Shown: positions 3,854 to 32,014, counted from the stretch's first letter. The stretch: 64,000 nucleotides of DNA from Klebsiella pneumoniae (GCA_945876945.1 CAMCQE010000001.1:18566-82565); one strand, 5' to 3'. The notes: a model not told the origin generated them from the letters alone. A program made the numbers and translations.

Positions 3854-5067
3854 AGTTCCTGCTGCTGGCACTGGCCGCGCTGATCGGGGCGGTAGGCTTG
3901 GGTCAGCTAATTGCCGCCCATCCGGGCGTGGTCGCCATTAGCGTTGACGGCACCTCGCTACGGCTCAGTCTCAGCCTGTTTGTGGTGGTCTCGGTAGTGG
4001 GCGCCTTGCTGCTGAGCTGGCTGCTGCGTCAGGCCTGGCGCTTGCTCACCATTCGTTCCCGCTTCCGGCGCTGGCGACAGGCGCGGGCGCGCCGCTTGGC
4101 CGGTGAGCGGCTGGAATCCGGCTTGCTGGCGCTGGTGGCCGGCGACTATCCGCGGGCCGAACGCCTGCTCGGCCGTGGCGGTGAGCGTTCCACCCTGCAA
4201 TATCTGGCGGCGGCGCAGGCGGCCCACGCGCAACAGGCCAGCGGACGACGCGACGCGCTGTTGGCGCTGGCCACCGGCGGCACCAAAGAATCCGCGCTCG
4301 CGCTGGGCATCCGACGGACGGAGATGCTGTTGGACGACGGCGATTTGGTCGCCGCCGACGCGGCGCTCGCGCCCCTGCTGGTCCGTCACGGCGAGCAGCC
4401 TCAGGTCTTGCTGCTGCGCCAGCGGCTGCTCACCCTGCAGGGTCGATTTGCCGATCTGCAGTCGCTCTTGCCCCTGCTCCGCAAACGCAAGGTGCATCCG
4501 CCGGCGCGACTCGATGAACTGGAGACCGAGCTGGCGATGCGCCGGCTCGAAGCCGTGGCCAGCGTGCCGGCGGAGCTGGCCCGCGTGTGGTCAGGGCTGG
4601 CGCGGCGGCTGCGCGAGAACCCGGCCATCGTTGCCGTTTACGCCCGCGCCCTGCTCAAGGCGGGGAGTCAGGCCGGCGCGGAAGAAGTGCTGCGCAAGGC
4701 GCTCAGCACCCAATGGCACGCGCGACTCATCGCCCTCTACGGCGAGCTGGACGGCAATGAAGTGCGCGGCGCGCTGACGCGGGCCGAACGCTGGCTGGAA
4801 CAGCATCAGGAAGATCCGGCGCTGCTGCTCAGCCTCGGCCGCTTGTGTCTTTCACAGCAACTGTGGGGCAAGGCGCGGGCCTATCTCGAAACCTTGAGCA
4901 GGCTGGCCCCCTCGCCGCTGGTCTGGCGGCTGCTGGCCGACGCCTGCGATGAATTGGGCGACACCCGGCTGGCCCAACAGTACCGTCAGCGCGGGCTGGA
5001 ACACGCCACGGCGGCCGCCCTCGGCCGCGAACCGCCGCTCCTACAGCTGGGCGGCGTGCTGGATTAG
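3850..5067 (+). CDS. hemY: HemY-like TPR membrane protein
   Basis: Two N-terminal TM helices followed by TPR-like repeats. ATGA-type overlap with hemX; conserved hem-operon position. Confidence 0.8.
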   Translation: MKFLLLALAALIGAVGLGQLIAAHPGVVAISVDGTSLRLSLSLFVVVSVVGALLLSWLLRQAWRLLTIRSRFRRWRQARARRLAGERLESGLLALVAGDYPRAERLLGRGGERSTLQYLAAAQAAHAQQASGRRDALLALATGGTKESALALGIRRTEMLLDDGDLVAADAALAPLLVRHGEQPQVLLLRQRLLTLQGRFADLQSLLPLLRKRKVHPPARLDELETELAMRRLEAVASVPAELARVWSGLARRLRENPAIVAVYARALLKAGSQAGAEEVLRKALSTQWHARLIALYGELDGNEVRGALTRAERWLEQHQEDPALLLSLGRLCLSQQLWGKARAYLETLSRLAPSPLVWRLLADACDELGDTRLAQQYRQRGLEHATAAALGREPPLLQLGGVLD

Positions 5068-5951
5068 CACCCGGCGCGGATCTGGTTGCGGCGCTCGATC
5101 AGACGCCCGATCGCCGGCGCTAACAGCAACTCCATCGCGAAGACGTTCTTGCCCGCCGGCACCACCAGCGTATCCGGCCGCGACATGAACGAGCCCTGCA
5201 ACATCTCCAGCAGGGCGCGGAAATCGGGTTTTAACTTCTGCAGATTGGCAATCTGGATCACCACCATGCTTTCGTCGTTGGTGGGGATCTCGCTGGCGGT
5301 GAAGGGGTTGGAGGTATCGATAGTCGGAATGCGCTGGAAGTTGATGTCCGTGCGCGAGAACTGCGGGCAGATGTAGTGCACGTAGTCGGGCATGCGGCGG
5401 AGGATCATCTGCGTAGCGGTTTCGGCGCTGTAGCCGCGCACGGCGCGGTCGCGATGAATTTTCTGGATCCACTCGAGATTGATGATCGGCACCACGCCAA
5501 TCAGCAGGTCGACGTGGTGAGCCACGTTGTGGTCTGCGGTCACCAGGCCGCCGTGCAGGCCCTCGTAGAACAGCAAATCGGAGTGCTCGGGCAGCGCTTC
5601 CCAGGCGGTGAAAGTGCCGGGCTCGCCGCCGTGCTCGAGCGCGTCTTCGGGTGTGTGCAGATAGCGCCGCCGCCGACCGGTGCCGGTGTCGCCATAGCCC
5701 CTGAAGAGGTCAACGAGTTCGTCAAACAGATTGCCGTCTGGCCCGAAGTGGGTGAGCGTGCGGCCGGCCTGCGCCGCGAGCTCCACTTCGCGGGCCATGC
5801 GGGCGCGATCGTGGCGATGCAGGCTATCGCCTTCGATCCACGCCGCGCTGAGGCGCTGACGCTGAAAAATATGCTCAAACGCGGTGGTGACGCTGGAAGT
5901 ACCAGCGCCGGACGAGCCGGTCACCGCAACGATTGGATGTTTTTCACTCAT
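5064..5951 (-). CDS. prk: Phosphoribulokinase (Calvin cycle)
   Basis: MSEKHPIVAVTGSSGAGTSS P-loop N-terminus and full-length PRK (cbbP) similarity. ORF-track upstream extension rejected. Confidence 0.9.
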   Translation of the reverse strand: MSEKHPIVAVTGSSGAGTSSVTTAFEHIFQRQRLSAAWIEGDSLHRHDRARMAREVELAAQAGRTLTHFGPDGNLFDELVDLFRGYGDTGTGRRRRYLHTPEDALEHGGEPGTFTAWEALPEHSDLLFYEGLHGGLVTADHNVAHHVDLLIGVVPIINLEWIQKIHRDRAVRGYSAETATQMILRRMPDYVHYICPQFSRTDINFQRIPTIDTSNPFTASEIPTNDESMVVIQIANLQKLKPDFRALLEMLQGSFMSRPDTLVVPAGKNVFAMELLLAPAIGRLIERRNQIRAGC

Positions 5952-6030
5952 GGGCGGGAAGCCTCTCGGTATCGCTTGCGCCGGCCTATCGCGGGGTGCA
6001 AACCGGCAGGGCCTTCGGCATAGTAGCGCG

Positions 6031-7782
6031 ATGGATCCTGCGACCGACAGCACCCGGCTGTACCTACGACTTCTCAGCTACCTCAAACCCCATCGGGCGA
6101 TCTTTATGGGGTCTCTGGTCGGCATGGTGGCGCTGGGTTCGACCGAATGGATGCTGCCGGCCTTCCTGCGCTATCTCGTCGATCACGAATTTGGCACCGA
6201 CCGCGGCCTGAGCGTGTTGCTAATCCCGCTCGCACTAACCGTCTTGCTGGCGGTGCGCGGCGGCCTGAGCTACGTGTCCACAGTGGGACTCGCCGCGGTC
6301 GCCCAGCGGGTGATGATGGATATCCGGCGTCAGATGTTCAGCTCACTGATTAGCCTGCCCGCCCGCTTTTATGACCAGCGAGCAGCCGGCGAGTTGATGT
6401 CCAAGTTCACTTTCGATGTTACCCAGGTCGCGCAGGCCACCACGCAAGTGCTAACGGTGCTGGTCAGAGACACCGTGCTGCTGGTCGCGCTCTTCGGCTA
6501 CATGCTTTACACGAACTGGCGGCTGGCGATCTTCATGCTGGTGATGGGGCCGTTTATCGCGCTCCTCGTCAGCCGCGTCTCGCAACGCCTGCGTCGCAGC
6601 AGTCGCCGCCTGCAGGACTCGATGGGCGAAATTACCATCGTCACCGAGGAAGCCATCGGCGGGCATCGCGACGTCAAAGTCTTCGGCGGTCAGGCGTATG
6701 AGACCGAGCGCTTCGGGCGCGCCATCAACAACGCCCGCAAACTGCAGATGAAAGTCATCGGTACCGCCGCCGGCACCGAGCCCTCGCTGCAGGTGATCGT
6801 GGCGATTGGGCTGGGCGCGATGATGGCGTTTGCCTTGAAGGAAGCGGCTGCCGGCGAACTCTCACGAGGGGATTTCGTCTCGTTCGTGGCGGCGACCGCC
6901 ATGCTGCTGTCGCCGATCAGACGGGTGACCGGCGTCAATGAACATCTGCAGCGCGGCCTCGCTGCGAGCGAAAGCTTTTTCTCACTGATGGACGAAATCC
7001 CGGAAACCGGCGGCACTGCCCAGCTGCCAAACGCTGTGCGGGGTGCGATTCGTTTTGAGCAAGTGAATTTCGCCTACGACGACCGGCTGATTCTGAGCGA
7101 CCTTAATCTTGAGATCGCCGCCGGCGAATCGGTGGCGCTGGTGGGCGCTTCGGGCGGCGGCAAAACCAGTCTGGTGAATCTGGTGCCGCGCTTTTATGTC
7201 CCACAGTCAGGGCGCATCTTCATCGACGATATCCCCATCGATACGCTGGATTTGGCCGCCTTGCGCGAGGCGATTGCCTACGTCGGTCAGCAGGTGGTGC
7301 TGTTCAACGACACCATCGCCCACAACATCGCCTATGGCAGCCTGCGGGCCAAATCAGAGGCCGAGATTGCCGCCGCCGCCGAGGCCGCCTTCGTGACCGA
7401 ATTCGTGCAGGCCCTGCCGCGTGGCTTCGAGACCGTGATCGGCGACGATGGCCTGCGCCTCTCCGGCGGTCAGCGCCAGCGGCTGGCGATTGCGCGCGCG
7501 CTGCTGAAAGACGCGCCGATTCTGATTCTGGATGAAGCGACCTCCGCGCTCGACGCGGAATCGGAGCGCCGCATCCAGCAGGCACTCGGCGTGCTGCGCA
7601 AGGGCCGCACCTGCCTTATCGTGGCCCACCGGCTCTCGACCATCGAAGCCTGCGACCGCATCGTGGTCATTGAGCACGGCCGCATCGTCGAGCAGGGCTC
7701 GCATCAACAGCTCATCGCCGCCGGCGGGAGCTATGCCCGGCTGCACCGACTGCAGCGCGAGGGCGGGGACGCATTGTCCTGA
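6031..7782 (+). CDS. msbA: Lipid A export ABC transporter, fused permease/ATPase
   Basis: Six-TM domain followed by Walker A (GASGGGKTS), ABC signature (LSGGQRQR) and Walker B (ILILDEATSALD). Start at MDPATD. Confidence 0.85.
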   Translation: MDPATDSTRLYLRLLSYLKPHRAIFMGSLVGMVALGSTEWMLPAFLRYLVDHEFGTDRGLSVLLIPLALTVLLAVRGGLSYVSTVGLAAVAQRVMMDIRRQMFSSLISLPARFYDQRAAGELMSKFTFDVTQVAQATTQVLTVLVRDTVLLVALFGYMLYTNWRLAIFMLVMGPFIALLVSRVSQRLRRSSRRLQDSMGEITIVTEEAIGGHRDVKVFGGQAYETERFGRAINNARKLQMKVIGTAAGTEPSLQVIVAIGLGAMMAFALKEAAAGELSRGDFVSFVAATAMLLSPIRRVTGVNEHLQRGLAASESFFSLMDEIPETGGTAQLPNAVRGAIRFEQVNFAYDDRLILSDLNLEIAAGESVALVGASGGGKTSLVNLVPRFYVPQSGRIFIDDIPIDTLDLAALREAIAYVGQQVVLFNDTIAHNIAYGSLRAKSEAEIAAAAEAAFVTEFVQALPRGFETVIGDDGLRLSGGQRQRLAIARALLKDAPILILDEATSALDAESERRIQQALGVLRKGRTCLIVAHRLSTIEACDRIVVIEHGRIVEQGSHQQLIAAGGSYARLHRLQREGGDALS

Positions 7783-7955
7783 GCGGGGCGGCAGCGCGTC
7801 CGGCTGCGACGGGTTTCGTCGCGGGAAGTTCACTGGGCGCACAGAGACTCGGCGCGGCATCTATCGCTCCGCCCACTGATACGCCGGGCCCGCAACCGTG
7901 CAGGCTCTGGCGCACCAGCCCTATCACACCGAAGCTACTTTTCAGGAGTCGTCGC

Positions 7956-9302
7956 ATGCTTGTTCAACAGTCCAAACAGTCCTTGAAGCGGCTCATTGCC
8001 GGCTTCGCACTCGGTGCAGTGATGGCTACCGCCGGCAGCGCGGCGTATGCCATTAACGACCCGGTAGTCTTCTCTTTCGCCACGGTCGGCGATAATCGCC
8101 AAGACCCGGATGGGCCGGATTCCAGCCAGCTGCTCCCACCGAACTCGGCCGGCGGCAAACTGCTGACCCAGGACAAACTCTGGCTGCAAAACTCCAAGGC
8201 TTGGGGCCGCATCCTGCGCTCGGTTCAGGCCCAGAAGCCGAAGATGTTCTTCATCAATGGCGACATGGTCATGGGCTACCGCAACCCCGTCGTGCCGGCG
8301 AGTTGGTCAAGCGCCGCACCCACCCTGAGCCAGGTGGTGAACTCCGATATCACCCAACTCTATGTGCAGTACGCGTTCTGGCGCGGCATGGTCGTCAACG
8401 CGATGGAAACCGGCACCTACATCATGCCCGTGCCCGGCAACCACGAAGTCCAGTGCAAGACCACGATCAGCCAAAACGGCGTTGCGTGCCCGAACGGCAA
8501 CAAACAGGCGACTGTGGACAACGAAAAGGCCTTTCGCGCGAATATGGGCGACCTGATTGGCGACCTCACCACCAACCAGCGCTTTAGAAGCATCGTCGGT
8601 AAGGCTGCCACCAATGTGCGCGGCCTGACTCCTGCCACGGCGCCGCTGGCCGCCGACACCGTCGGTGGCACCGACCAGTCCTACCTCAGCTACTCGTTCG
8701 ATATTGAAACCAACGGCGCGATTCTGCATTTCGCCGTCATCAATACCGACCCGACCGGTAACGACGGCCACGCGCCGACCAACTGGTTGACGAGCGACTT
8801 CAGTGCCGCCGCTGCCCGTGGCCTGAGCGCGATGAAGCCGGTGAAGTACTTCGTGTTCGGCCACAAGATGGCGTTCACGTACAACTATCAGGCGAGTGGC
8901 GCGATTGAAGCCGGCGGTCTGGATACCGACACCACGTCCCGCAACAACTTCTGGCGCTTGATAGCGCAGTACAACGCGGCCTATTTCTGCGGCCACGAAC
9001 ACGTGACCCATCTCGAACAGTATGCAGACCCGACCAGTACCTACACCGCCAAGAACCCCTGGCAGGTGCTGGTGGGCGCCGGCGGTTCGCCGTTCGACGC
9101 CTTTCGCGCGTGCACGTACGACGCTAACGGCGTAGCGACCTCGTGCTCGGCGGCACCCGCTACTGCCGGAACCAAAGACCGCTGGTACGGCTGGGCTTTG
9201 GTGAAAATCCGTCAGAGCGGCGCGGTGGACCTTGAGCTCTACGGCTTCAGCGACAGCTTTGGCGCGACCACCAAAATCCAGACCGTCACGGACTTCCAGT
9301 AA
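7956..9302 (+). CDS. Secreted calcineurin-like metallophosphoesterase
   Basis: Signal peptide (…AGSAAYA). Metallophosphatase motifs GDNRQD, NGDMVMG, GNHE, GHKM, GHEH. Lower-GC codon usage than neighbours. Confidence 0.7.
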   Translation: MLVQQSKQSLKRLIAGFALGAVMATAGSAAYAINDPVVFSFATVGDNRQDPDGPDSSQLLPPNSAGGKLLTQDKLWLQNSKAWGRILRSVQAQKPKMFFINGDMVMGYRNPVVPASWSSAAPTLSQVVNSDITQLYVQYAFWRGMVVNAMETGTYIMPVPGNHEVQCKTTISQNGVACPNGNKQATVDNEKAFRANMGDLIGDLTTNQRFRSIVGKAATNVRGLTPATAPLAADTVGGTDQSYLSYSFDIETNGAILHFAVINTDPTGNDGHAPTNWLTSDFSAAAARGLSAMKPVKYFVFGHKMAFTYNYQASGAIEAGGLDTDTTSRNNFWRLIAQYNAAYFCGHEHVTHLEQYADPTSTYTAKNPWQVLVGAGGSPFDAFRACTYDANGVATSCSAAPATAGTKDRWYGWALVKIRQSGAVDLELYGFSDSFGATTKIQTVTDFQ

Positions 9303-9400
9303 GGTAAGGCCGACAAGGAATTCCCTCCCGGGCGTTATTGCCGGCCCCTCGCGCAAGCGAGAGGGCCGCAGGGTGCAGGGAATTTGCTGGAGACACCGAA

Positions 9401-9428
9401 AGGCCGCCGCAATGCGGCCTTTTTTATT
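9401..9428 (+). terminator. Rho-independent terminator after the phosphoesterase gene
   Basis: aggccgc-cgcaat-gcggcct hairpin followed by TTTTTTATT. Confidence 0.65.
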
Positions 9429-9532
9429 CCGCCCTGACCCGCCGTAAAACTAAAGACATTCGGATGACAAACGCCTAAATTACGGCCACCGATAGCGCAA
9501 TCGGGCGATTAAAAACATTTTGGGGACTCGTC

Positions 9533-10441
9533 ATGGCCAGCCAACAATCCGCCGCAATCGACACACTTTTCGACAGCTTCCGCGCCGCGATGGTGGCCAA
9601 TCCCACCATGTCGCTGGACGAACTCCGTGACCTCCTTGAGAAGTGCGGCGATCTGGCGACCGATCCGGGTCAGGTGGATTACCTGGAAATCGACGCCGAC
9701 GGCACGCCCTGCCTGTGGGCCGTGCCCCACGGCTGCGCGCAGGACCGGGTGTTGCTGGCGCTGCACGGCGGCGGTTGCGTCACCGGTTCGCGTTTCTCCC
9801 ATCGCAAGATGTTCGCTCACATCGCCAAAAAAATTGGTTGCCGCGCGCTGATTCTCGATTACCAGCGCGCCCCGGAACACACCCATCCCTCGCAGGTCAA
9901 CGAAGCCGTCAAGGTTTACGAGTGGCTGCTGCAGCAGGGCATTGATGCCAAACACGTGATAACCGTTGGCGACTCCGCGGGCGGCATGCTCTGCACTACC
10001 GTGGTGCTGGCCGCGCGCGAGCGCAATCTGCCCTTGCCGGCCGGCGTCATGGCGCTCTCGCCCTGGTACGACATGGAGGCCACCGCGCCGTCTTTCGAAA
10101 CCAACGCCGCCGTCGAACGCCTCATCACCCGCGAACTCTCGCTCAATATGGCCGCGATGTTCCTCGGTGAGGCATCGCCCAAAGATCCGCTGGCCAATGT
10201 GATGTACGCCGACTTCCGGGATTTCCCGCCCACCTGCATTCAGGTCGGTGGCTACGAGGTCATTGTTGACGATTCGCTCCGCATCGCCGACCGCATGCGG
10301 GATGCGGGCGTGACCTGCAGCGTGGAAGTCTTCCCGCAAATGCAGCACGTGTTCCAGTTCATGGCGGGCCGCGCGCCGGAAGCCGACGAGGCCATTCGCA
10401 AACTCGCCGCTTGGGCCAAACCGAAGCTCGGCCTCGCCTGA
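9533..10441 (+). CDS. Alpha/beta-hydrolase fold-3 esterase/lipase (HSL family)
   Basis: HGGG oxyanion motif, GDSAGG nucleophile elbow, C-terminal DxxH-like region. Confidence 0.8.
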   Translation: MASQQSAAIDTLFDSFRAAMVANPTMSLDELRDLLEKCGDLATDPGQVDYLEIDADGTPCLWAVPHGCAQDRVLLALHGGGCVTGSRFSHRKMFAHIAKKIGCRALILDYQRAPEHTHPSQVNEAVKVYEWLLQQGIDAKHVITVGDSAGGMLCTTVVLAARERNLPLPAGVMALSPWYDMEATAPSFETNAAVERLITRELSLNMAAMFLGEASPKDPLANVMYADFRDFPPTCIQVGGYEVIVDDSLRIADRMRDAGVTCSVEVFPQMQHVFQFMAGRAPEADEAIRKLAAWAKPKLGLA

Positions 10442-10949: not shown

Positions 10950-11641
10950 GCAATGACATCAAACCGATCGATCTGGCGAGCGTGGACTGGGTGCTCAACA
11001 CCACCCGCAGCGTGCGCCAGCGTCTGGACTTCGACCGCCCGGTGCCCATGGCGCTGATCGACGAGGCGCTGAACATCGCGCTACAGGCGCCCACCGGCGC
11101 CAACACCCAAACCTGGCGCTTCATGGTGATTACCGAGCAGAAATCCAAAGACCTCATCGCCGACTGCTATCGCCGCGCCGCCGGCGCCTATGTCGAAGGC
11201 AAGACGGGGCTCTCTAAAACCGGCGTGACGATGATGCGCGAATACGAAGAAGCCGACCTTCGCCAGCAGCAGAAGGCGGCGATGATGAAATCCGGCGGCT
11301 ATCTGATGCAACACATGCAGCGCGCACCGGTGATGGTGATTCCGCTCATCGAAGGTCGCTTCGAGCACGACGATGTGTTTACCCAGGCTTCCATGTGGGG
11401 CTCGATCTTGCCGGCCACCTGGTCCTTGATGCTGGCCTTACGCGCGCGGCGCATTGCGTCCGCCTGGACGACGCTGCATCTGCAGTACGAGCGCGAAATC
11501 TCGGACGCCCTCGGCATTCCGGAGAGTTACACGCAGGCCGCGCTGCTGCCCATTGCGTGGCTGACCGGCGGCGACTTGCATCCGGCCAAACGCCTGCCGG
11601 TTAATGAGGTGACCTTTCGCGATCGCTGGGGCCAACATTAA
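10946..11641 (+). CDS. Nitroreductase family protein
   Basis: R-S-x-R FMN-binding N-terminal region (TRSVRQRLDF) and size typical of the NfsA/NfsB-like fold. GGGGAG RBS precedes the ATG at 10946. Confidence 0.7.
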   Translation: MSNDIKPIDLASVDWVLNTTRSVRQRLDFDRPVPMALIDEALNIALQAPTGANTQTWRFMVITEQKSKDLIADCYRRAAGAYVEGKTGLSKTGVTMMREYEEADLRQQQKAAMMKSGGYLMQHMQRAPVMVIPLIEGRFEHDDVFTQASMWGSILPATWSLMLALRARRIASAWTTLHLQYEREISDALGIPESYTQAALLPIAWLTGGDLHPAKRLPVNEVTFRDRWGQH

Positions 11642-11671
11642 GACCCGCGCGGGCGGTCGAGGGGATAGCGC

Positions 11672-12658
11672 ATGGGCTTGCTGATTAACGGCCGCTGGGA
11701 CAGCGCGGCGACCATGATTCCAGTCGAAAACGGCCGCTTTGTGCGCGAACCGGCCGCGTTCCGGGCGACTATCACGGCCGACGGCAGCAGCGGTTTCAAA
11801 GCCGAAGCCGGGCGCTACCACCTGTACGTCGCCTATCACTGCCCCTGGGCCTGGCGCACGATGCTCTATCGCGCGATCAAAAATCTGGAGCCGATGATTT
11901 CGATGACCATCGCCATCCCGAACGACCGCCGGGAAGGCTGGATTTTTGGCGACTACCCCGGCGGCTGCACGCCGGATGCGGTCAACGGCTTCACGCATCT
12001 GCATCAGGCCTATACCGCGACCCGGCCCGACTACACCGGCATGGTGTCGGTGCCGGTGCTGTGGGACAAACAAACGGGCGGCATCGTCAACAACGAGTCG
12101 CCCGAAATCATCCGCATGCTGAACAGCGCGTTTGATGCGTTTACCGACGTGAAAACAGATTTCTATCCCACCCCGCTCCGCGCCGAAATCGACGCGATCA
12201 ACGAGCGGGTGTATCAGGGCGTGAACAACGGGGTGTACCGGGTAGGGCTCGCCAAGTCGCAGGAGGCCTACGACGAAGCCTTCGATGTGTTGTTCGAGAC
12301 GCTGGACTGGCTGGAGGCGCGGCTGGCCACGCAGCGCTATCTCGTGGGGGCGCAAATCACCGAAGCCGACTGGCGCCTGTTAGCCAGCCTGCTGCGCTTC
12401 GATTTGGTGTATCACGGACTCTTCAAATGCAATCAGCGCACGATTGCGAGCTATCCGCAGCTGTCGAACTACCTGCGCGAGCTGTACCAATATCCGAAGG
12501 TGGCGGAGACGATCAACGTGCAGCACTTCGTGCGCGGCTACTACTCGATTCCGGGCATCAATCCCACCGGGATCATCCCGCGCGGGCCCCAGGGCTATCA
12601 CGAAGCGCTGGCCCAGCCGCACGATCGCGGGCGCTTTGGATCGCCGGCGGAGCACTAA
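11672..12658 (+). CDS. yqjG: Xi-class glutathione transferase / glutathionyl-hydroquinone reductase (YqjG/ECM4 family)
   Basis: CPWAWR active-site motif and ~328-aa length colinear with YqjG. Confidence 0.85.
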   Translation: MGLLINGRWDSAATMIPVENGRFVREPAAFRATITADGSSGFKAEAGRYHLYVAYHCPWAWRTMLYRAIKNLEPMISMTIAIPNDRREGWIFGDYPGGCTPDAVNGFTHLHQAYTATRPDYTGMVSVPVLWDKQTGGIVNNESPEIIRMLNSAFDAFTDVKTDFYPTPLRAEIDAINERVYQGVNNGVYRVGLAKSQEAYDEAFDVLFETLDWLEARLATQRYLVGAQITEADWRLLASLLRFDLVYHGLFKCNQRTIASYPQLSNYLRELYQYPKVAETINVQHFVRGYYSIPGINPTGIIPRGPQGYHEALAQPHDRGRFGSPAEH

Positions 12659-12663
12659 AGACC

Positions 12664-14010
12664 TCAGTCCGGCAGCAGATTCTGAAACTCCTGAAACTTG
12701 CCATTGGCTCCCCTTGGCAAGGGACCGTCCAGTGTTTCGATGTCGAGCGCAAAGGGATAACCCGTGGCCTGCTGGAGCGTGTTCAGCAACCAGCGGAGAT
12801 CCGATGGGGTGAGAGGCCGCTGCGGCCAAATCTTGAGATGTAAGCGCTCGGGCGCGACTTGTAAGACCTGAAACTGACGAACAATACGCCGCGCCTCGTC
12901 GCTGCGCAGACCGAGCATCGGCCAGAAGCGGCGCCCGTCCGGTAAGCGCAGCAGATTCCGCTCGCGACCGATAATCCGGTTCAGCGTGGGCAGGCCCCGC
13001 CCGCACTCACAGGCCGGTCCAACTTCCGCGTAATCCCGAAGTTCGTAACGAATCAAGGCAGTGGCGAAGTTGCGCAGGTCTGTCACCAGCACGCGCCCGA
13101 TCTCCCCTGGCGCGCAACTCGCGCCGACGTCATCCACCACTTCCAGCACCACGCCTTCGGCCATGCAGTGAAAGCCGCCGCGTTCGCACTGCGCGGCGAT
13201 CGGGCCTACTTCTTCGGCGCTGTATTCATCGCACACGCGCAGCTGCCATTGCTGAGAGAGCGCGTCGCGCAAGTCGGGCGCGAGTGTTTCGCCCATGGCA
13301 ATCACGAACGCGAGCCCACAGGGATTCGCCGGCGATTGCTCCAGCAGTCGGCGCAGATTGGAGGGGTAGCTCATGAGATAACGCGGCTGATTCTGGTGGA
13401 GCATCGCGAGTTGCTGCTCAAGCGGCTGCGTAATGGAAAGCTCATAGGCCGGACCGCTGCCATAAAGCGCGCCAATAGAAGGGTTCCAATGCTCGTAGCG
13501 AACGACCTCTGTGGCCCCATTACCGCCGATGCCAGCCCGAATCACCGCAAAGGCCTGATCAAGTTCCAGCCCATACCAGTCAGTGAGACTGCGCAGCCCA
13601 AAAGCGTTGCGCAGGACCTGCGCGGCGGCGGTGTAACGCGCCGCCACCGGTTCGCCGGATGAGCCCGAGGTGCGGGTGATACCGACCGGTCCGTGCGCGG
13701 GACTCGTCTCGCAGTAGATCGCTTCGGCATGTTGCTGAAAGTCGCCGCGGGTCAGCGGTGGCAGGCTGGCAAGGATCTCAAAGGCGGTCTCGGCGCGCAG
13801 CTCGCGGTCGCGGAGCAGTGGCTGATAAAACGCGCTGTAGGTAGCAGCATGCTGGAGGCGCGCCGCCAGCTGACGAGACTGCAGTGCGCGCAAAGCTGCG
13901 GGCGCCAGCCACTGCGAGGCTTGAATTTGAGCGAGCGTTGAGTAGAGCGCGGCCTGCTGTGGCGATAATGCCGCCGGCCAGCAGAGTTCAGAGGAGCCGG
14001 ACTTCAGCAT
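12664..14010 (-). CDS. PaaK/CapK-like adenylate-forming enzyme (phenylacetate-CoA ligase / coenzyme F390 synthetase family)
   Basis: ANL-superfamily core (TSGSSGEP P-loop-like motif, C-terminal GKFQEF lysine). Last gene of the hpn-like operon. Confidence 0.75.
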   Translation of the reverse strand: MLKSGSSELCWPAALSPQQAALYSTLAQIQASQWLAPAALRALQSRQLAARLQHAATYSAFYQPLLRDRELRAETAFEILASLPPLTRGDFQQHAEAIYCETSPAHGPVGITRTSGSSGEPVAARYTAAAQVLRNAFGLRSLTDWYGLELDQAFAVIRAGIGGNGATEVVRYEHWNPSIGALYGSGPAYELSITQPLEQQLAMLHQNQPRYLMSYPSNLRRLLEQSPANPCGLAFVIAMGETLAPDLRDALSQQWQLRVCDEYSAEEVGPIAAQCERGGFHCMAEGVVLEVVDDVGASCAPGEIGRVLVTDLRNFATALIRYELRDYAEVGPACECGRGLPTLNRIIGRERNLLRLPDGRRFWPMLGLRSDEARRIVRQFQVLQVAPERLHLKIWPQRPLTPSDLRWLLNTLQQATGYPFALDIETLDGPLPRGANGKFQEFQNLLPD

Positions 14011-14070
14011 GCAAGGCCGTTAGCGCGAGCGATATTGAAGACCATCGCGCCGCGCTAGTCCGGCTTGGCC

Positions 14071-15498
14071 TTAACCCGCGTCGTTACGCGTCCGCAAGAA
14101 GTTGAAGAACTCCACGCCTTCGCGCAGACGGCGTTTCATCATGGTCCAGCTCTTCAGCATCTCCCAGGTGATTTCGCCAATCTTGCGCGGCCGGAAGTAG
14201 AACCGCTTGTAGAACACCGCCAGCGCCTCAAAGATTTCTTCGTGCGATAGATGCGGGTATTCGAGCGAGCTGATTTGCAGACCGTTGTCGGCCACCACGT
14301 CGCCGGCCGGGCGGCGTAGCCAGTTGTTGGACTGGGCTTCGGCGTAGATGCGGGTGCCTGGATAGGCCGCCGCCAGCGACACCTGAATGGTGTGCGGATT
14401 GATTTCCTGCGCGTAGCGGATGGTTTCTTCGATCGTCTCGCGGGTTTCGCCCGGCAGGCCCACGATGAAGGTGCCGTGAATGGCGATCCCCAGCTTGTGG
14501 CAGTCGGCGGTGAAGCGCCGCGCGATGTCCGTGCTCACACCCTTGCGGATGTTGATCAGGATCTGGCGGTTGCCAGACTCGTAGCCCACCAGCAACAGAC
14601 GCAGGCCGTTTTCCTTCATGATTTTCAGCGTTTCGTACGGCACGTTCGCCTTGGCGTTACACGACCAGGTGATGCCGAGCTTGCCTAGCAAGCGAGCGGT
14701 TTCTTCCACGCGCTTGATGTCGTCGGTGAAGGTGTCGTCGTCGAAGAAGAATTCTTTGATCTGCGGGAAGTACTGCTTGGCTTTGGCGATTTCATCCGCC
14801 ACCACCTGCGGGCTGCGGGTGCGATAGCGATGACCGGAAATGGTTTGCGGCCACAGGCAGAAAGTGCAGCGCGACTTGCAGCCACGGCCGGTATACACCG
14901 ACAGGTAGGGGTGCTGCAGGTAGCCGATGAAATAGTCTTCGATGACCAAATCGCGCTTGTACACGTCGATCACCGACGGCAGCGCATCCATGTCTTCGAT
15001 AATCGGGCGGTCGGCGTTGCGCACATAGCTTTCGCCGTTGCGCCAGGTGATGCCGCCCACTTCGGCCAGCGGTTTGCCTTCGGCAATTTCCACGCAGACG
15101 TAATCGAATTCACCGTTGGCGACGAAGTCGATGGCCTTGGAAGCGCGGATGGAGGGGTCCGGATTGACCGACACATGCGCGCCGACCATACCGATGAGGA
15201 GCGTCGGATTTTTTTCCTTCAGCGCCTCGGCAATCTTGCAGTCGTTCTCGAACGACGGCGTGCTGGTGTGAAGCACGGCAAACTCGAAGTCGCCGGCCAT
15301 CGCCACCACTTCTTCCACGGTCTGGCCGTGGGCGGGGGCATCAACCAGTTTGCTGTTCGGGACCATCGCGGCCGGTTGCGCCAACCACGTGGGATACCAG
15401 AAAGAGCGGATTTCGCGGCGGGCCTGATAGCGCGAGCCGGCGCCACCGTCAAAGCCGTCGAAAGACGGCGGGTTCAAAAACAGCGTTTTCATAGTCAT
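14071..15498 (-). CDS. hpnJ: B12-binding radical SAM protein, HpnJ-type (hopanoid cyclitol-ether formation homologue)
   Basis: N-terminus MKTLFLNPPSFDGFDGGAGSRYQ, cobalamin-binding domain, CxxxCxxC (CKSRCTFC) radical SAM cluster. Start overlaps upstream stop by ATGA. Confidence 0.8.
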   Translation of the reverse strand: MTMKTLFLNPPSFDGFDGGAGSRYQARREIRSFWYPTWLAQPAAMVPNSKLVDAPAHGQTVEEVVAMAGDFEFAVLHTSTPSFENDCKIAEALKEKNPTLLIGMVGAHVSVNPDPSIRASKAIDFVANGEFDYVCVEIAEGKPLAEVGGITWRNGESYVRNADRPIIEDMDALPSVIDVYKRDLVIEDYFIGYLQHPYLSVYTGRGCKSRCTFCLWPQTISGHRYRTRSPQVVADEIAKAKQYFPQIKEFFFDDDTFTDDIKRVEETARLLGKLGITWSCNAKANVPYETLKIMKENGLRLLLVGYESGNRQILINIRKGVSTDIARRFTADCHKLGIAIHGTFIVGLPGETRETIEETIRYAQEINPHTIQVSLAAAYPGTRIYAEAQSNNWLRRPAGDVVADNGLQISSLEYPHLSHEEIFEALAVFYKRFYFRPRKIGEITWEMLKSWTMMKRRLREGVEFFNFLRTRNDAG

Positions 15499-16640
15499 GA
15501 TGGTTCGACGGTTCCTTTCAGTTCCATGTGGCCCTGTTTGTCCACCTTGAATTCGTAACCCTGCCATTCAACGTTGCGGCCGAGAAAACTCGCCACCCAC
15601 ACGCCAAAACACAGGAGATCGCGTAGCACCGTGAGCCCATAGGCGGCGGGCTGCCCGGGTGCCACTGTAGTACGCGCCACATCGTGCAGCAGCGCGCGTA
15701 AACCCACGGCCCAACCCACCGCAGCCACGCCCGCAATCGGGTGCTGGGCGCCCACCACCAGCGCAAAGGCCAGCGCGGCAGGCGTGATATAGGTCAGGAA
15801 AGACATCGCGTAACCGCCCGCTTGCACGGAGCGGACGGTGCGGGCCCAGCGCAGTTCGTGCCTTAGCAACGAAGCGAGCGAGGGCTCATGGACAGTATTC
15901 TCGACGATACAAGGGATTAAAGCGACCCTGCCGCACTGCGATGCCGCCAGATCCCCCAGTCGGTAATCGTCGGCCAGTTCATTGGCCAGCCGCTCGAAGC
16001 CGCCGATCGCCTCCAGCGCACTGCGCCGCACGGCCATCGTCGCCCCAAAGCAAAAGTGCAGGGATTGGAAACTGGTTGCCACCAGCACCGAAGGCAGAAA
16101 CCATTCGTTGATATAGGCCGCCCCGAGCCAGGAGGCGAGGCCGGCCACCGGACGACCGCGATAAAGGCAGGTGCCAGCGGCCACACCCGGATCTTCAAAA
16201 CTGCCCGCGATGCGGCGCAGGTAGTCCGGCGCCACGCGCATGTCGCTGTCGGCGATCACCAGAATGTCGTAACGGGATAGCTCGTGGCAGTTCGCCACGT
16301 TGCAGATTTTACGATTGCTTCCGATCAGGCGGTCGTTCACCACCAGCGCAAGGTCGGACTCGGGACACGCGGCAATGACGCGACGGGCCACCGCCACGGC
16401 CGCGTCATCCGCCTTGGAAACGCCAAAAATCACCTGATATTGCGGGTAATCCTGCTGACAGAACGACAACAGGTTCTCGAACAGGCCGGGCTCGTCCCCG
16501 TGTAGGGGTTTCAGCACCGTCATTGGCGGGCAGTCGCCATCGGCCCGCGGCGCCGGATGATTCAGTCGCAGCAGACCGCGGATCGCCAGCATCACATACG
16601 CACTGGCCGCCAGCAGATAAAACGAAAGGAGCAGTTGCAC
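15495..16640 (-). CDS. hpnI: Family-2 glycosyltransferase, HpnI-type (ceramide-glucosyltransferase-like)
   Basis: N-terminal TM, GT2 core with DSD and QxxRW-like region. Translationally coupled to hpnJ. Confidence 0.75.
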   Translation of the reverse strand: MQLLLSFYLLAASAYVMLAIRGLLRLNHPAPRADGDCPPMTVLKPLHGDEPGLFENLLSFCQQDYPQYQVIFGVSKADDAAVAVARRVIAACPESDLALVVNDRLIGSNRKICNVANCHELSRYDILVIADSDMRVAPDYLRRIAGSFEDPGVAAGTCLYRGRPVAGLASWLGAAYINEWFLPSVLVATSFQSLHFCFGATMAVRRSALEAIGGFERLANELADDYRLGDLAASQCGRVALIPCIVENTVHEPSLASLLRHELRWARTVRSVQAGGYAMSFLTYITPAALAFALVVGAQHPIAGVAAVGWAVGLRALLHDVARTTVAPGQPAAYGLTVLRDLLCFGVWVASFLGRNVEWQGYEFKVDKQGHMELKGTVEPS

Positions 16641-16766
16641 GAAGGCCCTCGGCTCAACGGATTAGGTAAGGGGGCCAGACGGGTCAAGGTCTCGGCTGGC
16701 GCCGCTGCCCACTGGTGTCGCGGCAGCATTATAGGGGCCCGGCCCCTCACAGGGCCACGACGCTGA

Positions 16767-17759
16767 CTAGGGCTTTTGCTCCACGCCGGTCGGTCGGGTG
16801 AAGCGCGACCAGCGGCCGGTTTCGATCCAGTGCCAGGCAAGCAAGGCGGGCAGACCCAGTGCAAGTTCCCGCACGCGCTTGATCAGCGAAAGCGACAAGC
16901 CCGTCGCTGGCGACAAACCCAGCTGCATCGAGAGCCACACCAGACTGCCTTCCTGCACGCCCAAGCCCGCCGGCACAAAAAACGCGGCGGCGCGAATGGC
17001 CTGACCGAGACTTTCAATCACCAGCGCCTGCCCCAGCGTCACCGGCATGTTGATGACGTCGGCCATCACGTAGATCTCAATCACCCCGCCCAGCCAGCCG
17101 GCGAGATGCCAGGCGCAGCCGACCCAGAGCCCGCGCGGATTGCGATAGCTCGCTTCAATCGCATCGTGCAGGCCACGCAGGCCTTCCGTATCCAGCGACG
17201 GCCACCGGCGCTTGAGCCACGCGCCTAGCGCTTCGAGCAAGGTCAACAAACCTCGCCGCTGCAGCACCAGCAAGGCGCCGACCGCCGGCACGAAGACCGC
17301 AAGGCCCAACAGCGTGTAGGCGATAAGGCCGTGCGCCAGACCCGCCGTCACCGCGAACCCCAGACCCATCAAGATGAACAGGACCAGCGTGACCGCTTCA
17401 ACGGTAAGGTCGACCGTGGTGCTGCCGGCGGCTTCAGCGGCCTTCGCGCCAGACAATACCAATAGGCGCCCGCCCACCACTTCACCCCCCAGTTGCGCCA
17501 CCGGCAGCAAACCGCCCACGGCTTCGCGGATCCAGCGCGTCCAGACATAGGTGCGCGCGGGAATGCGCACCTCGGTGTCGGCCACCGCGTGCCAGGCCAT
17601 GCCCGAACACCAGACCTGCAGGATGTGGATCAGGATGACCGGCACAATGCCAAAGCCGATCGTGGCGAGCGCGTGCAGCGGCGCTTCACCCTGCTGCCAC
17701 AGCAGCCAGCCCACCACGGCCAAACCAAGCAGCGCGCTCACGCGCATGAACATTTGCAT
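16767..17759 (-). CDS. hpnL: Lysylphosphatidylglycerol-synthase-like / flippase-like membrane protein, HpnL-type (UPF0104)
   Basis: Polytopic membrane protein ~330 aa, Gly/Ala/Leu-rich helices. Sits between hpnK and hpnI as in hopanoid-associated loci. Confidence 0.6.
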   Translation of the reverse strand: MQMFMRVSALLGLAVVGWLLWQQGEAPLHALATIGFGIVPVILIHILQVWCSGMAWHAVADTEVRIPARTYVWTRWIREAVGGLLPVAQLGGEVVGGRLLVLSGAKAAEAAGSTTVDLTVEAVTLVLFILMGLGFAVTAGLAHGLIAYTLLGLAVFVPAVGALLVLQRRGLLTLLEALGAWLKRRWPSLDTEGLRGLHDAIEASYRNPRGLWVGCAWHLAGWLGGVIEIYVMADVINMPVTLGQALVIESLGQAIRAAAFFVPAGLGVQEGSLVWLSMQLGLSPATGLSLSLIKRVRELALGLPALLAWHWIETGRWSRFTRPTGVEQKP

Positions 17760-17786
17760 AGGGTGCTCGGCCTTTCGCGCGGTGGA

Positions 17787-18686
17787 TTAGCCGACCGGCG
17801 CCAAATCGGCAAAGCCGCCGTGGCGGATGTGGCGCGATTGCAGAATCTCGCGCACCTCAGGGTCGAGCAGCGCGTCGAGTTCAGCCCGGCTGGCCTCAAT
17901 CGCGAGCGGCCAGGGCCCGGGCCCTTCGCTCACCGCAGGATGGAAAAAAATCTCGGCGCTGCCCTCGGGCAGCACGCGCAGGATGTGACGCAAGCGCGTC
18001 GCGCTCATGCGCCCGGTGTCGTGCAATCCAATGACGCGGTCGGTGGTGCGCATGCCCGCCCGCCGCAGCCGCCATTTCACGAGTCCAATCCACGGCCCGA
18101 GCAAAGCGCCGACCAAGCGCCGCGCAAACCCGCCGGTTTCACCCGGCAACATCGACAGCAGGGGCGGCTCCGCCGGCAGGCGCACGGCGCGCACACCGAA
18201 CTCCCGCCCGATGCGAATCATCAGCCCCAGCACGGTGGGATGCAGATGCAGATGATGATGCGCATCCACGTGGTCGAGCGGCAGGCCGGTGGCCTTGAAG
18301 GCCTCGAACTGGGCGCGAATTTCGGCCGCTAGCTGGCGCCGCACCCGCGGCAGAAAAAAATAACGAAAGCCGGCGCGGGCAAAGTCCCGGCTCAGCTCGC
18401 CGTGTTCATCCACCAAATCGGGAATGACCGCGGGCGGCAACACGGCGCGGTTTGCCACCACCACCAGATGCAGTCCCACCTTGAGCGTGGGATTGCGTCG
18501 CGCGCAGGCCACCGCTTCAGCCGCCGCCGCCGCCCCCACCATCAGACTTGCCGCGTCGAGCACACCGTCCCGGTGCGCGAGCTCAATGCCGGCGTTCACG
18601 GCGGGTGATAAACCAAAATCGTCGGCCTTGAAGATGACCTGTTTCAAACGTTGGGTCTCGGTCTGGGGTGGCGAATCGTCATACAT
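17787..18686 (-). CDS. hpnK: YdjC/ChbG-family carbohydrate deacetylase, HpnK-type. Start at MYDDSPP; the long upstream ORF extension is rejected.
   Basis: VIFKADDFGL N-terminal motif and DxHHH(L)H metal-site motif (DAHHHLHLHP). The upstream part of the ORF is antisense to a real plus-strand gene. Confidence 0.75.
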   Translation of the reverse strand: MYDDSPPQTETQRLKQVIFKADDFGLSPAVNAGIELAHRDGVLDAASLMVGAAAAAEAVACARRNPTLKVGLHLVVVANRAVLPPAVIPDLVDEHGELSRDFARAGFRYFFLPRVRRQLAAEIRAQFEAFKATGLPLDHVDAHHHLHLHPTVLGLMIRIGREFGVRAVRLPAEPPLLSMLPGETGGFARRLVGALLGPWIGLVKWRLRRAGMRTTDRVIGLHDTGRMSATRLRHILRVLPEGSAEIFFHPAVSEGPGPWPLAIEASRAELDALLDPEVREILQSRHIRHGGFADLAPVG

Positions 18687-18818
18687 TCGGGCGCAAAGGG
18701 AAACAGCGCGCGCCGCGCGTGATGCTTCAGCCACAGCCGGGAAACGGGTTAAGCTCGGGCCACTATTCATACAACAGCAGGGCTTGTCCGACGCAAGGGC
18801 ACGCCGGGGAGTTCCACA

Positions 18819-20285
18819 ATGAGCGCTACGCAATACGATCACCGCAATCCGCGCATCGTCATCATCGGTGCCGGCATGGCCGGCATTCTCACCGCCATCA
18901 AGCTGCGCGAGGCGGGTTACACCAACTACGCCATCTACGAGAAAACCGACCGCGTTGGCGGCACCTGGCGCGAGAACACCTATCCCGGCATCGCCTGCGA
19001 CGTGCCGTCTCATCTCTACACCTATTCTTTCGAGCCCAATCCCGACTGGACGCAAACCTTTGCCACCGGCCCGGAGATTTGCGCCTACTTCCAGCGCGTG
19101 GCGGACAAATACGGCGTAACCGCGCAGGTTCACTTTAACGAGACCATCCCCTACTGCGAGTTCAAGGACGGGCGCTGGCAGATTCGCACCTCCACCGGCC
19201 GCGAAGACGTGGCGGACGTGGTGATTGCGGCCACCGGCGTGTTGCATCACCCAAACGTGGCGGACATCCCGGGCCTTGAGAGCTTTCAGGGCGTGTCTTT
19301 CCATAGCGCGCGCTGGGATCACAGCGTGCCGCTGGCAGACAAACGCGTGGGCGTGATTGGCACCGGCTCTACCGCCATCCAAATCACCACCGCGATTGCC
19401 GACAAGGTCAAACGCTTCGACCTCTATCAGCGCACCGCCCAGTGGGTGATGCCGATCGAGAACAAGATTTTCACCGAGGAAGAGCGCGCCGCCTTCCGTG
19501 ACGATCCGGTGGCGCTCGCCCAGTTCAAAGCCGAGGCGCTGGATTACTTCAAGCACTTCTCCAACGCGGTAATCGACGCCGATTCGCAGGAAATGGCTGA
19601 ACTCGAGGCCGCGTGCCTGGCCAACCTCGAAGACCACGTGCTGGACCCGGTGCTGCGCGAGAAGCTGCGCCCCAACTATCGTGCGGGCTGCAAACGGCTC
19701 ATCTTCTCGCCCAATTTCTATCAGGCGGTGCAAAGCCCGAACGCGCACGTGATTACCGATGAAATCGCCGCCGTCGAGCCCGCCGGCATCCGCCTGAAGA
19801 CCGGCGAGCTGCGCGAACTCGACGTGCTGGTAGTGGCCACCGGCTTTCGCGCCGACAGCTTCATCCGCCCGACCACCGTGCTCGGGCGTGGCGGCGTGAA
19901 TCTCGACGACGTCTGGTCCGAAAGCCCAACCGCGTATCTGTCGATTTCGATTCCCGAGTTCCCCAACTTCTTCATGCTGAACGGCCCCAACGGCCCGGTC
20001 GGCAATTTCTCGCTGATTTCCATCGCGGAATCGCAGGTGTCCTACATCCTCACGCTGCTGGAAGAAATTCGCGGCGGCCGGTGCCGGGAAATCAGCGCCA
20101 ACGCGGACGTCAGCGCGAGTTTTGAGGAAGAGCGCGTGGCGGCGGCGAAGAAATCCATCTGGTCCACCGGCTGCAAGAGCTGGTATCTGGACAAGAACGG
20201 CGTGCCGGCCAGCTGGCCGTGGTCCCGCGACAAGTTCTTTGAAGTGATGGCCGACCCCAAACTCGAGGCCTTCGACCGCGTCTAG
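18819..20285 (+). CDS. Flavin-containing / Baeyer-Villiger-type monooxygenase
   Basis: GAGMAG dinucleotide fold. FMO/BVMO fingerprint FQGVSFHSARWDH (FxGxxxHxxxWD). Second GxGxxA (GTGSTA). Confidence 0.8.
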   Translation: MSATQYDHRNPRIVIIGAGMAGILTAIKLREAGYTNYAIYEKTDRVGGTWRENTYPGIACDVPSHLYTYSFEPNPDWTQTFATGPEICAYFQRVADKYGVTAQVHFNETIPYCEFKDGRWQIRTSTGREDVADVVIAATGVLHHPNVADIPGLESFQGVSFHSARWDHSVPLADKRVGVIGTGSTAIQITTAIADKVKRFDLYQRTAQWVMPIENKIFTEEERAAFRDDPVALAQFKAEALDYFKHFSNAVIDADSQEMAELEAACLANLEDHVLDPVLREKLRPNYRAGCKRLIFSPNFYQAVQSPNAHVITDEIAAVEPAGIRLKTGELRELDVLVVATGFRADSFIRPTTVLGRGGVNLDDVWSESPTAYLSISIPEFPNFFMLNGPNGPVGNFSLISIAESQVSYILTLLEEIRGGRCREISANADVSASFEEERVAAAKKSIWSTGCKSWYLDKNGVPASWPWSRDKFFEVMADPKLEAFDRV

Positions 20286-20335
20286 GCGCGGGATTGCGCT
20301 GCCAGTCCGGAAGCCGGACTGGCAGGCCTTCCGGT

Positions 20336-30949: not shown

Positions 30950-31208
30950 GCTGAATTCTCACGTCGCCGATTGCGGCGAAAAAGCATTGTTGTAAGGAAG
31001 CACCGTGCCCTGCGGGGCCGGTCGCATTATAGCCATTTTGCAGCACCGCACTAGGCGAAGAAGTCGCAGCCAGCGGCACCTCTTGCCCAGTACCGCGGCA
31101 ATCGTTTCCAATGCCTAGCACCCCGCGCGCTGCCCGGGCTCCATGCAACCGTTACGGATTCCCATCGCGAGGCTCCCCTTGTCGCAAGCCACCGGCGCTA
31201 CCGCGCGC

Positions 31209-31988: not shown

Positions 31989-32014
31989 GCCAGGCCCACG
32001 CCGGCTCTTCCCTC

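Follow-up and report, generated by a model that had tools for sequence, protein, structure and literature searches.

A PaaK-family ligase gene appended to a bacteriohopanetetrol head-group operon in uncultured freshwater Gammaproteobacteria, a possible hopanoid-tailoring enzyme

Results and discussion

The stretch of DNA analysed here comprises 64,000 nucleotides (CAMCQE010000001.1:18566-82565, assembly GCA_945876945.1) and is called the window, with positions counted from its first letter. Between 12664 and 20285 it carries hpnK-hpnL-hpnI-hpnJ, a gene for an adenylate-forming ligase, and a divergent flavin monooxygenase (FMO) gene. The four hpn genes were shown to be a genuine bacteriohopanetetrol (BHT) head-group operon. 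This gene set is already known; what is new is the appended ligase gene, which is restricted to one uncultured freshwater clade. Our preferred explanation, put forward tentatively from gene context and protein family, is that the ligase could be a clade-specific and dispensable tailoring enzyme that would acylate BHT-glucosamine or BHT cyclitol ether.

Six open reading frames (ORFs) were confirmed in this part of the window, five of them co-directional on the minus strand (12664-18686) and one on the plus strand (18819-20285). The features, in the direction of transcription of the operon and then across the divergent region, are the following:

17787..18686, minus strand: hpnK, YdjC-family deacetylase, first gene of the operon (TIGR03473 and Pfam YdjC)
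16767..17759, minus strand: hpnL, membrane protein with an LPG_synthase_TM (flippase-like) domain (TIGR03476 and PF03706)
15495..16640, minus strand: hpnI, GT2/GT21 glycosyltransferase (TIGR03472 and Glyco_transf_21)
14071..15498, minus strand: hpnJ, B12-binding radical-SAM (S-adenosylmethionine) enzyme (TIGR03471, B12-binding and Radical_SAM domains)
14011..14070, minus strand: spacer between hpnJ and the ligase gene, strong hairpin without a U-tract (RNA fold and terminator scan)
12664..14010, minus strand: PaaK-family (NatL2/CapK-like) adenylate-forming ligase, 448 aa, fifth and last gene in the direction of transcription
18687..18818, no strand: divergent intergenic region between hpnK and the FMO gene, 132 bp, presumed promoter of the operon
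18819..20285, plus strand: FMO with a type I Baeyer-Villiger monooxygenase (BVMO) fingerprint, divergent from hpnK

Identity of the hpn genes

The assignments of HpnI, HpnK, HpnJ and HpnL made earlier from the sequence alone were right, since each protein passes its NCBIfam cut-off: HpnJ scored 796 bits with TIGR03471 (cut-off 578), HpnI 416 bits with TIGR03472 (310), HpnL 248 bits with TIGR03476 (196) and HpnK 352 bits with TIGR03473 (233). The models are equivalog-type for HpnI, HpnJ and HpnK, and a subfamily model for HpnL. Pfam E values were 3e-69 for YdjC in HpnK, 9e-25 for PF03706 in HpnL and 7e-41 for Glyco_transf_21 in HpnI. The motifs quoted in the sequence-only reading, including the BVMO fingerprint, were all found in the translations: ADDFGL and DAHHHLH in HpnK, CKSRCTFC (of the CxxxCxxC type) in HpnJ, MKTLFLNPPSFDGFDGGAGSRYQ and FQGVSFHSARWD.

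All three of hpnI, hpnJ and hpnK are present and closely clustered within 12664-18686. Their occurrence has been described as all-or-none, and they cluster together but often not after hpnH (PMC12583986); as summarised in that same source, the hpnI-hpnJ-hpnK side-chain cluster was defined genetically in Burkholderia cenocepacia (Schmerk et al. 2015). The function of HpnL is unclear according to a recent preprint (10.1101/2025.07.29.667474).

The packed five-gene layout had also been read from the sequence. The 126 bp between hpnL and hpnI, the ATGA overlap of the hpnI stop with the hpnJ start and the 60 bp between hpnJ and the ligase gene stood, and the gap between hpnK and hpnL was corrected from 28 to 27 bp. 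The ATG at 18686 was read as the hpnK start, so that 132 bp separate it from the FMO gene.

Family, fold and residues of the ligase

The Pfam scan of the 448-aa ligase gave no match, and its scores with the NCBIfam models of PaaK, F390-synthetase, DVU1553 and FlxY were weak and far below the cut-offs (for PaaK, 38 bits with TIGR02155 against 646, and 42 bits with NF041878 against 700). Its AlphaFold2 model (pLDDT 91.7) retrieved PaaK1, BT_0428, NatL2, AjiA1 and ClxA in Foldseek at E values of 1e-21 to 1e-24, and the best result of a PDB sequence search was NatL2 (6SIW/6TM4) with an E value of 1e-13. As modelled, the ligase has the two-domain ANL fold of the PaaK family, and it carries the P-loop and the catalytic Lys near the C-terminus.

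A family alignment of 26 sequences, which includes the window ligase and three hpn-linked ligases from sister lineages (P0005, P0007 and P0013), presents 49 invariant columns, and all of them hold in the window ligase as a member of that alignment. Among these positions are the SGSSGEP P-loop (TSGSSGEP), D261/Y263/S264/E267, C275/H281/C334/C336 and K438. None of the family-invariant residues is lost in the window ligase or in the three sister ligases. The possibility of a pseudogene in the window was rejected, because the ligase is intact, all the invariant residues are present and neutrality was rejected (see below). C275, H281, C334 and C336 align with the QC..H and CGCG motifs of the Zn region of NatL2. 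The Zn site of NatL2 has been described as unique, and given that the aligned Cys and His residues are invariant in the 26 members, it may be widespread in the ligase family.

The ligase had been placed outside the described hpn pathway, and the survey agreed with this, as no counterpart was present in the Burkholderia locus (L037) or in the loci of 79 other species. The CapK-like character of the family was likewise confirmed by precomputed PF27533 (CapK_C) matches on homologues and by their neighbours, which are sulfotransferases, glycosyltransferases and giant secreted proteins. The commonest neighbour in the family is a 273-aa ORF directly upstream (25 loci), for which Pfam gave no match. 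Neither this partner ORF nor the other usual neighbours of the family were found in the window. The ligase therefore works in a new setting here, without its usual partner.

The wider family comprises more than 950 proteins annotated as "phenylacetate-CoA ligase family" (represented by loci L088-L166 and L001-L004). Its surroundings often hold tetratricopeptide-repeat (TPR) sulfotransferases, APS kinase/PAPS genes, glycosyltransferases, an acetyltransferase, type I secretion system (T1SS) genes and haemagglutinin-like giant proteins, and two tandem paralogues are present in L003 and L004. Judged from these gene contexts, the wider family with its 273-aa ORF may form a system, so far undescribed, for the modification of glycans or proteins.

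Conservation of the arrangement in one freshwater clade

Five ligase groups are 52-55% identical to the window ligase: P0007 (locus L169), P0011 (L170), P0013 (L171), P0005 (L172) and P0009. The ligase gene lies directly after hpnJ, on the same strand, in L169, L170, L171 and L172, with spacers of 12, 12, 72 and 12 bp, respectively. The contig record of P0009 presents the same layout, with a partial ORF 12 bp upstream and a glutathione S-transferase (GST)-like gene downstream. The neighbourhood is otherwise syntenic in L169-L171, the three contigs long enough to show it. The DNA of L169 and L170 is about 80% identical to that of the window, and L171 is similarly diverged at the protein level. 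In L169 and L170, the protein identities to the window are 97-98% for HpnJ, 87-88% for HpnK, 87% for the FMO, 82-83% for the GST-like protein, 81% for HpnI, 77-78% for HpnL, 70% for TgpA, 54% for the ligase and 52% for HemX. L171 has lost the GST gene and kept the hpnJ-ligase pair. In a neighbour-joining tree, the window ligase forms one hpn-linked clade with P0005, P0007 and P0013, sister to an Emcibacter-type group.

Taken together, at least five lineages, that of the window among them, keep the ligase linked to hpnJ, and all belong to a single genus-level clade of uncultured freshwater Gammaproteobacteria. According to the sequence-only reading, the proposal would fall if the ligase and the monooxygenase were never co-conserved with hpnIJKL in related genomes. 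In the sister species the ligase follows hpnJ and the FMO gene is kept next to hpnK, so the proposal does not fall on this count; the linkage stops at the genus-level clade. A reading of the ligase as an orphan, decaying and never co-conserved gene was considered during the analysis, on the basis of the drop in identity from 89% to 54%, the contexts of the homologues at 47-52%, the counts of 0/80 and 0/79 in the surveys described below and the frameshifted loci L005 and L006; it was dropped because the group at 52-55% sits after hpnJ in sister species.

The nearest outgroup is a gammaproteobacterial metagenome-assembled genome (MAG) from Lake Baikal (L007), whose HpnJ is 84% identical. It keeps the order CoA-transferase, FMO, hpnK-L-I-J and GST, with 4.3 kb and two unrelated ORFs between the FMO gene and hpnK.

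A broader survey covered 80 hpnJ loci from 80 other species. They contain hpnI in 71 cases, hpnK in 51, hpnL in 36 and the squalene-hopene cyclase (SHC) gene in 23. The order K-L-I-J is rare (2/80 loci, L007 and L079), I-J-K(-L) being the usual one, and hpnK directly follows hpnJ, in the slot occupied here by the ligase, in 41 of 73 loci.

Regarding transcription, neither a terminator-like nor a sigma-70-like site was found between hpnJ and the ligase gene, a scan that is weak evidence either way, and no sigma-70 consensus match was found in the 132-bp region between hpnK and the FMO gene. The RNA of 13990-14090 (minus strand) folds with -46.1 kcal/mol (z -2.9) into a hairpin without a U-tract, the outer stem of which pairs with ligase codons 3-5. 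The hairpin and the ligase start region are identical in L005 and L006, the 72-bp spacer of L171 forms a different hairpin, and three sister lineages have only 12 bp there. The spacer hairpin may be a translational or RNA-stability element. Co-transcription of the ligase with the hpn operon is predicted as likely.

Selection on the ligase

Ratios of nonsynonymous to synonymous substitution rates (dN/dS) were obtained by codon counting on pairwise alignments. For the ligase they were 0.30 between the window and L005, 0.23 between L169 and L170 and 0.21 between L169 and L171, and those of the hpn genes were 0.02-0.19 in the same three comparisons. Neutrality was rejected for the ligase between the window and L005 (binomial p = 7e-5). 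These results show that the ligase is under purifying selection, across lineages diverged to 52-55% identity. Its rate of evolution is three- to fourfold that of the hpn genes.

A possible role in head-group acylation

In the published pathway, HpnI adds N-acetylglucosamine to BHT to give BHT-N-acetylglucosamine, HpnK removes the acetyl group and exposes the amine of BHT-glucosamine, and HpnJ contracts the ring to convert BHT-glucosamine into BHT cyclitol ether. The ligase, presumably co-transcribed with the operon, could then tailor the head group in an optional step. A carboxylic acid, perhaps an aryl, amino or fatty acid, would be adenylated by the ligase, and the acyl group could be passed on directly without CoA, as in NatL2, or by way of a CoA thioester. 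It would be received by the free amine, or a hydroxyl, of BHT-glucosamine or BHT cyclitol ether, and the product would be an acylated composite hopanoid.

We regard the ligase as a likely member of the operon because it lies on the same strand, 60 bp after hpnJ (12-72 bp in the sister lineages), and is under purifying selection. A role as head-group acylase is favoured because PaaK-type enzymes form an acyl-adenylate, NatL2 transfers its acyl group without CoA, a free amine is exposed after HpnK, and acylated bacteriohopanepolyols (BHPs) are known. In fact, NatL2, which carries a Zn site, forms an ester from the acyl-adenylate without CoA, with the acyl group passing to a hydroxyl, and a locked closed conformation prevents CoA attack. 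As for the products, N-acylglucosaminyl-BHT has been described in Alicyclobacillus, mono- and di-acyl BHT in Hypericibacter, N-aminoacyl aminotriols in Rhodomicrobium and Variibacter, and BHT phenylacetate in Frankia. The earlier expectation of an undescribed modified composite lipid was thus too strong, as N-acylglucosaminyl-BHT, O-acyl BHTs and aminoacyl aminotriols are already known; it is their genes that are missing. No obvious candidate genes for undescribed BHP modifications emerged near the hopanoid clusters of Alphaproteobacteria in a 2025 survey, and our literature search found no ligase linked to hopanoids and no gene reported for the synthesis of acylated or aminoacylated BHPs.

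In a bolder form of this proposal, which we consider unlikely, the ligase would be the first enzyme identified as decorating composite hopanoids with acyl groups, by adenylating a carboxylic acid and attaching it to the amine exposed by HpnK on BHT-glucosamine or to that of BHT cyclitol ether. Its alleles (52-85% identity between lineages, with a dS at odds with the flanks) would then have different acyl specificities, and the hopanoid head groups in the outer membrane of this abundant freshwater lineage would vary from strain to strain. Many composite BHPs, acylated, aminoacylated or otherwise modified, have been recorded in cultures and sediments, and they serve as biomarkers. Since the ligase gene stands inside a head-group operon and is under selection, it is a concrete and clonable candidate for such a modification. 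If the link is true, an environmental lipid signal would be tied to a defined freshwater clade, and PaaK-type ligases would be able to tailor membrane lipids; otherwise, a passenger gene has joined an ordinary hpnIJKL cluster.

Alternative explanations for the ligase

The strongest alternative, which we consider a serious possibility even if a similarly tentative one, is that the ligase is an unrelated, horizontally acquired gene that entered the convergent junction between hpnJ and GST and is read through from the hpn promoter. Several observations agree with it and count against a role in head-group acylation. The ligase had no match in any of the 80 hpnJ loci from other species, even at E <= 0.01, and hpn genes were near none of 79 other ligase-family loci (0/79); among 80 metagenomic loci of the family, they appeared at only one, which is from the window's own species. 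A pattern-based metagenome scan of the family missed the sister group at 52-55%. Among the homologues listed, identity falls from 99% and 89% to 54% or less, and three homologues at 47-52% (Emcibacter and two MAG groups) are not near hpn genes and adjoin methyltransferases, giant secreted proteins and T1SS genes.

Furthermore, in L007 the slot of the ligase between hpnJ and GST (11430-15695) is occupied by a gene for a 1421-aa SNF2-family helicase, with SCO1167-type helicases and Snf2 pilus regulators as best NCBIfam matches and weaker ones to ZorD and DrmD. The presence of this different insert suggests that the hpnJ/GST junction is an insertion hot spot. The whole neighbourhood, from the CoA-transferase to the phosphoribulokinase (PRK), is syntenic within the clade, which would by itself explain the kept adjacency. 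Because every gene of the neighbourhood is syntenic at that depth, the conserved hpnJ-ligase adjacency is not specific evidence of function, and we therefore infer the function of the ligase from operon position and enzyme chemistry alone.

The substitution patterns point in the same direction. The dN/dS of the ligase is the highest among its neighbours, and its GC content at third codon positions (GC3) is 0.71 versus 0.73-0.82 for them. Its synonymous divergence (dS) between L169 and L171 is 1.23, 2.4 times higher than the value of about 0.5 in the flanks, and between the window and L005 it is 0.07, two to three times lower than the 0.12-0.22 of the flanks. These three features, high dN/dS, low GC3 and discordant dS, fit a mobile accessory gene. 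Since the dS of the ligase disagrees with the flanks and its GC3 is lower, the data suggest that the ligase alleles may have been exchanged independently of the operon, or have separate recombination histories.

Finally, the gene has been lost in some strains. L005 and L006, which come from different metagenomes, share a 1-bp frameshift and a 60-bp deletion in the ligase gene; the deletion removes the invariant D261, Y263 and S264, and the hpn genes are intact. A third contig with the same 307-aa ligase product probably has the same lesions. Full-length variants of 448 aa are on record for many metagenomes and for an NCBI MAG, in which the ligase and HpnJ have adjacent accessions. The loss would be recent and at strain level, because full-length variants with the same lineage-specific substitutions also exist. 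Being frameshifted and deleted in some strains, the ligase is dispensable.

Against an unrelated insert speak the position of the ligase, always on the hpn strand and with a spacing of 12 bp in three lineages, its retention beside hpnJ where the GST gene was lost (L171), the purifying selection at 52-55% identity, and the fact that it came without its usual partner gene yet stays selected. Acylation of the hopanoid head group remains, by a narrow margin, the reading that we prefer.

Another explanation is that the ligase belongs with the convergent GST-like, nitroreductase, glyoxalase and alpha/beta-hydrolase genes and would serve, for instance, in the activation of xenobiotic or aromatic acids for detoxification. 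PaaK-type enzymes classically activate aromatic acids. The 3' end of the ligase gene abuts or overlaps these genes, lying 5 bp from GST in the window and overlapping by 4 bp with GST in L169 and L170 and with the nitroreductase gene in L171, and the GST-like set is conserved with the ligase throughout the clade. However, the ligase is on the opposite strand, so they share no transcript; L007 keeps GST, nitroreductase and hydrolase without the ligase; and the score with the PaaK model TIGR02155 is far below its cut-off (38 bits against 646), with no paa genes nearby. We find this explanation improbable.

The flavin monooxygenase

The FMO matches the Pfam FMO-like and Pyr_redox_3 domains, and its best NCBIfam model is PtlE (186 bits against a cut-off of 1100). 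It carries the type I BVMO fingerprint FxGxxxHxxxW(P/D) as FQGVSFHSARWD, as well as the Rossmann motifs GAGMAG and GTGSTA. The fingerprint and the position of the gene, divergent from hpnK at 132 bp in the window, L005 and L170 and abutting it in L169, would suit an enzyme of the same pathway, oxidising the hopanoid head group or the acyl donor. Nevertheless, only one of the other 80 hpnJ loci has the gene (L007), there 4.3 kb away from hpnK behind the two unrelated ORFs. It is also paired convergently with the gene of a family III CoA-transferase, an arrangement conserved in L007 too, which suggests that the FMO belongs with the CoA-transferase unit. The idea that this enzyme oxidises the same substrate, which came from the sequence-only reading, thus comes down to local synteny, and a place for the FMO in the pathway is quite improbable.

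Core hopanoid genes and the acceptor

The absence of shc/hpnF, hpnH and hpnG from the window, noticed earlier, was confirmed by tblastn and a motif check. References for SHC, HpnG, HpnA, HpnN, HpnB/M and squalene synthase, which were verified proteins from the related locus L009 (whose SHC scores 846 bits with TIGR01507), gave no tblastn match in the 64 kb, so hpnA and hpnN were likewise not found. The HpnH-type motif CNLACAGC, present in 28 of the surveyed hpnJ loci, was not found in the window either, where hpnJ is the sole radical-SAM ORF. A Pfam scan of another 19 large window ORFs returned mostly housekeeping functions and no hopanoid gene; the other large ORFs include purD, purH, dusB, accC, dsbD, glnE, uvrD, tldD, moxR and cbbQ. 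The 10 kb beyond the window start also hold housekeeping genes and no core hopanoid gene.

It had been suggested from this absence that the acceptor may not be a hopanoid. In such a case, the hpnIJKL homologues would act on a non-hopanoid acceptor in a genome without shc. Besides the lack of shc, hpnH and hpnG in the window and of core genes in the 10 kb upstream, a search with the verified SHC turned up no accession near MDH4383180, and thus none tied to the same MAG (the one with MDH4383180/81). The four hpn proteins, on the other hand, exceed the NCBIfam cut-offs by wide margins, and in a published survey of genomes, HpnI and HpnJ domains were confined to those having SHC and HpnH. HpnJ is 97-99% identical across the sister species, and this conservation therefore indicates a strong constraint. 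Moreover, 23 of the 80 hpnJ loci (80 species) have SHC within 10 kb, as do 17 of the 42 fully flanked ones, which leaves 25/42 of the latter without it at that distance. A missing shc nearby is therefore ordinary. A non-hopanoid acceptor is very unlikely, and the operon stands, as far as the window and the 10 kb upstream go, apart from the core shc locus, as in most organisms.

Other features of the window

A perfect inverted repeat, GCCAGTCCGGAAGCCGGACTGGC, probably a bidirectional terminator, lies in the 50 bp (20286-20335) that separate the FMO gene from the convergent CoA-transferase gene.

At 7938-10441, a 448-aa ORF without Pfam match (7956-9302) and an adjacent alpha/beta-hydrolase gene are far diverged from L005 (78-89% nucleotide identity and dS of 0.6-1.3, with flanks at 94.5% and dS of 0.1-0.2). 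In L169 and L171 an EAL/cNMP-binding gene replaces this ORF, so the tract is strain-variable.

The tracts 5064-6053, 31143-34165 and 37704-39263 hold genes for phosphoribulokinase, CbbQ, a 716-aa ORF without Pfam match (possibly CbbO-like) and a ShlB/FhaC two-partner-secretion transporter. The phosphoribulokinase, CbbQ and 716-aa ORF suggest that the organism may be a Calvin-cycle autotroph.

Comparison with known systems

Among enzymes of known structure, PaaK (TIGR02155; 2Y27, 2Y4N) is the top structural match of the ligase (E value 1e-24, TM about 0.6) and shares the P-loop and the catalytic Lys. The ligase differs from it in sequence (21% identity, 38 bits against 646) and in its neighbours, which are hpn, GST, nitroreductase and glyoxalase genes and no paa genes. 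With NatL2, AjiA1 and ClxA from benzoxazole pathways (6SIW, 6TM4, 6WUQ, 9S3L) it shares the fold (Foldseek E value about 1e-22) and the aligned Cys and His residues, and NatL2 and AjiA1 are its best sequence matches among solved structures (E value 1e-13). However, the identity is about 23%, and neither a NatAM-type amidohydrolase gene nor 3-hydroxyanthranilate genes lie nearby. CapK-like ligases (PF27533 CapK_C), known from capsule and glycan loci, resemble it through homologues of the ligase with precomputed CapK_C and AMP-binding matches; here, by contrast, the protein has no Pfam match, lacks the 273-aa partner and is found in a lipid head-group operon.

The acylated composite hopanoids described elsewhere are the kind of product proposed for the ligase, but none has been reported from this clade. 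The known hpnI-hpnJ-hpnK(-hpnL) cluster is the same in having all four genes tightly clustered and, as often elsewhere, apart from shc, and differs from that of the window in its order, which is K-L-I-J here, and in the ligase gene after hpnJ, a combination seen in this clade only.

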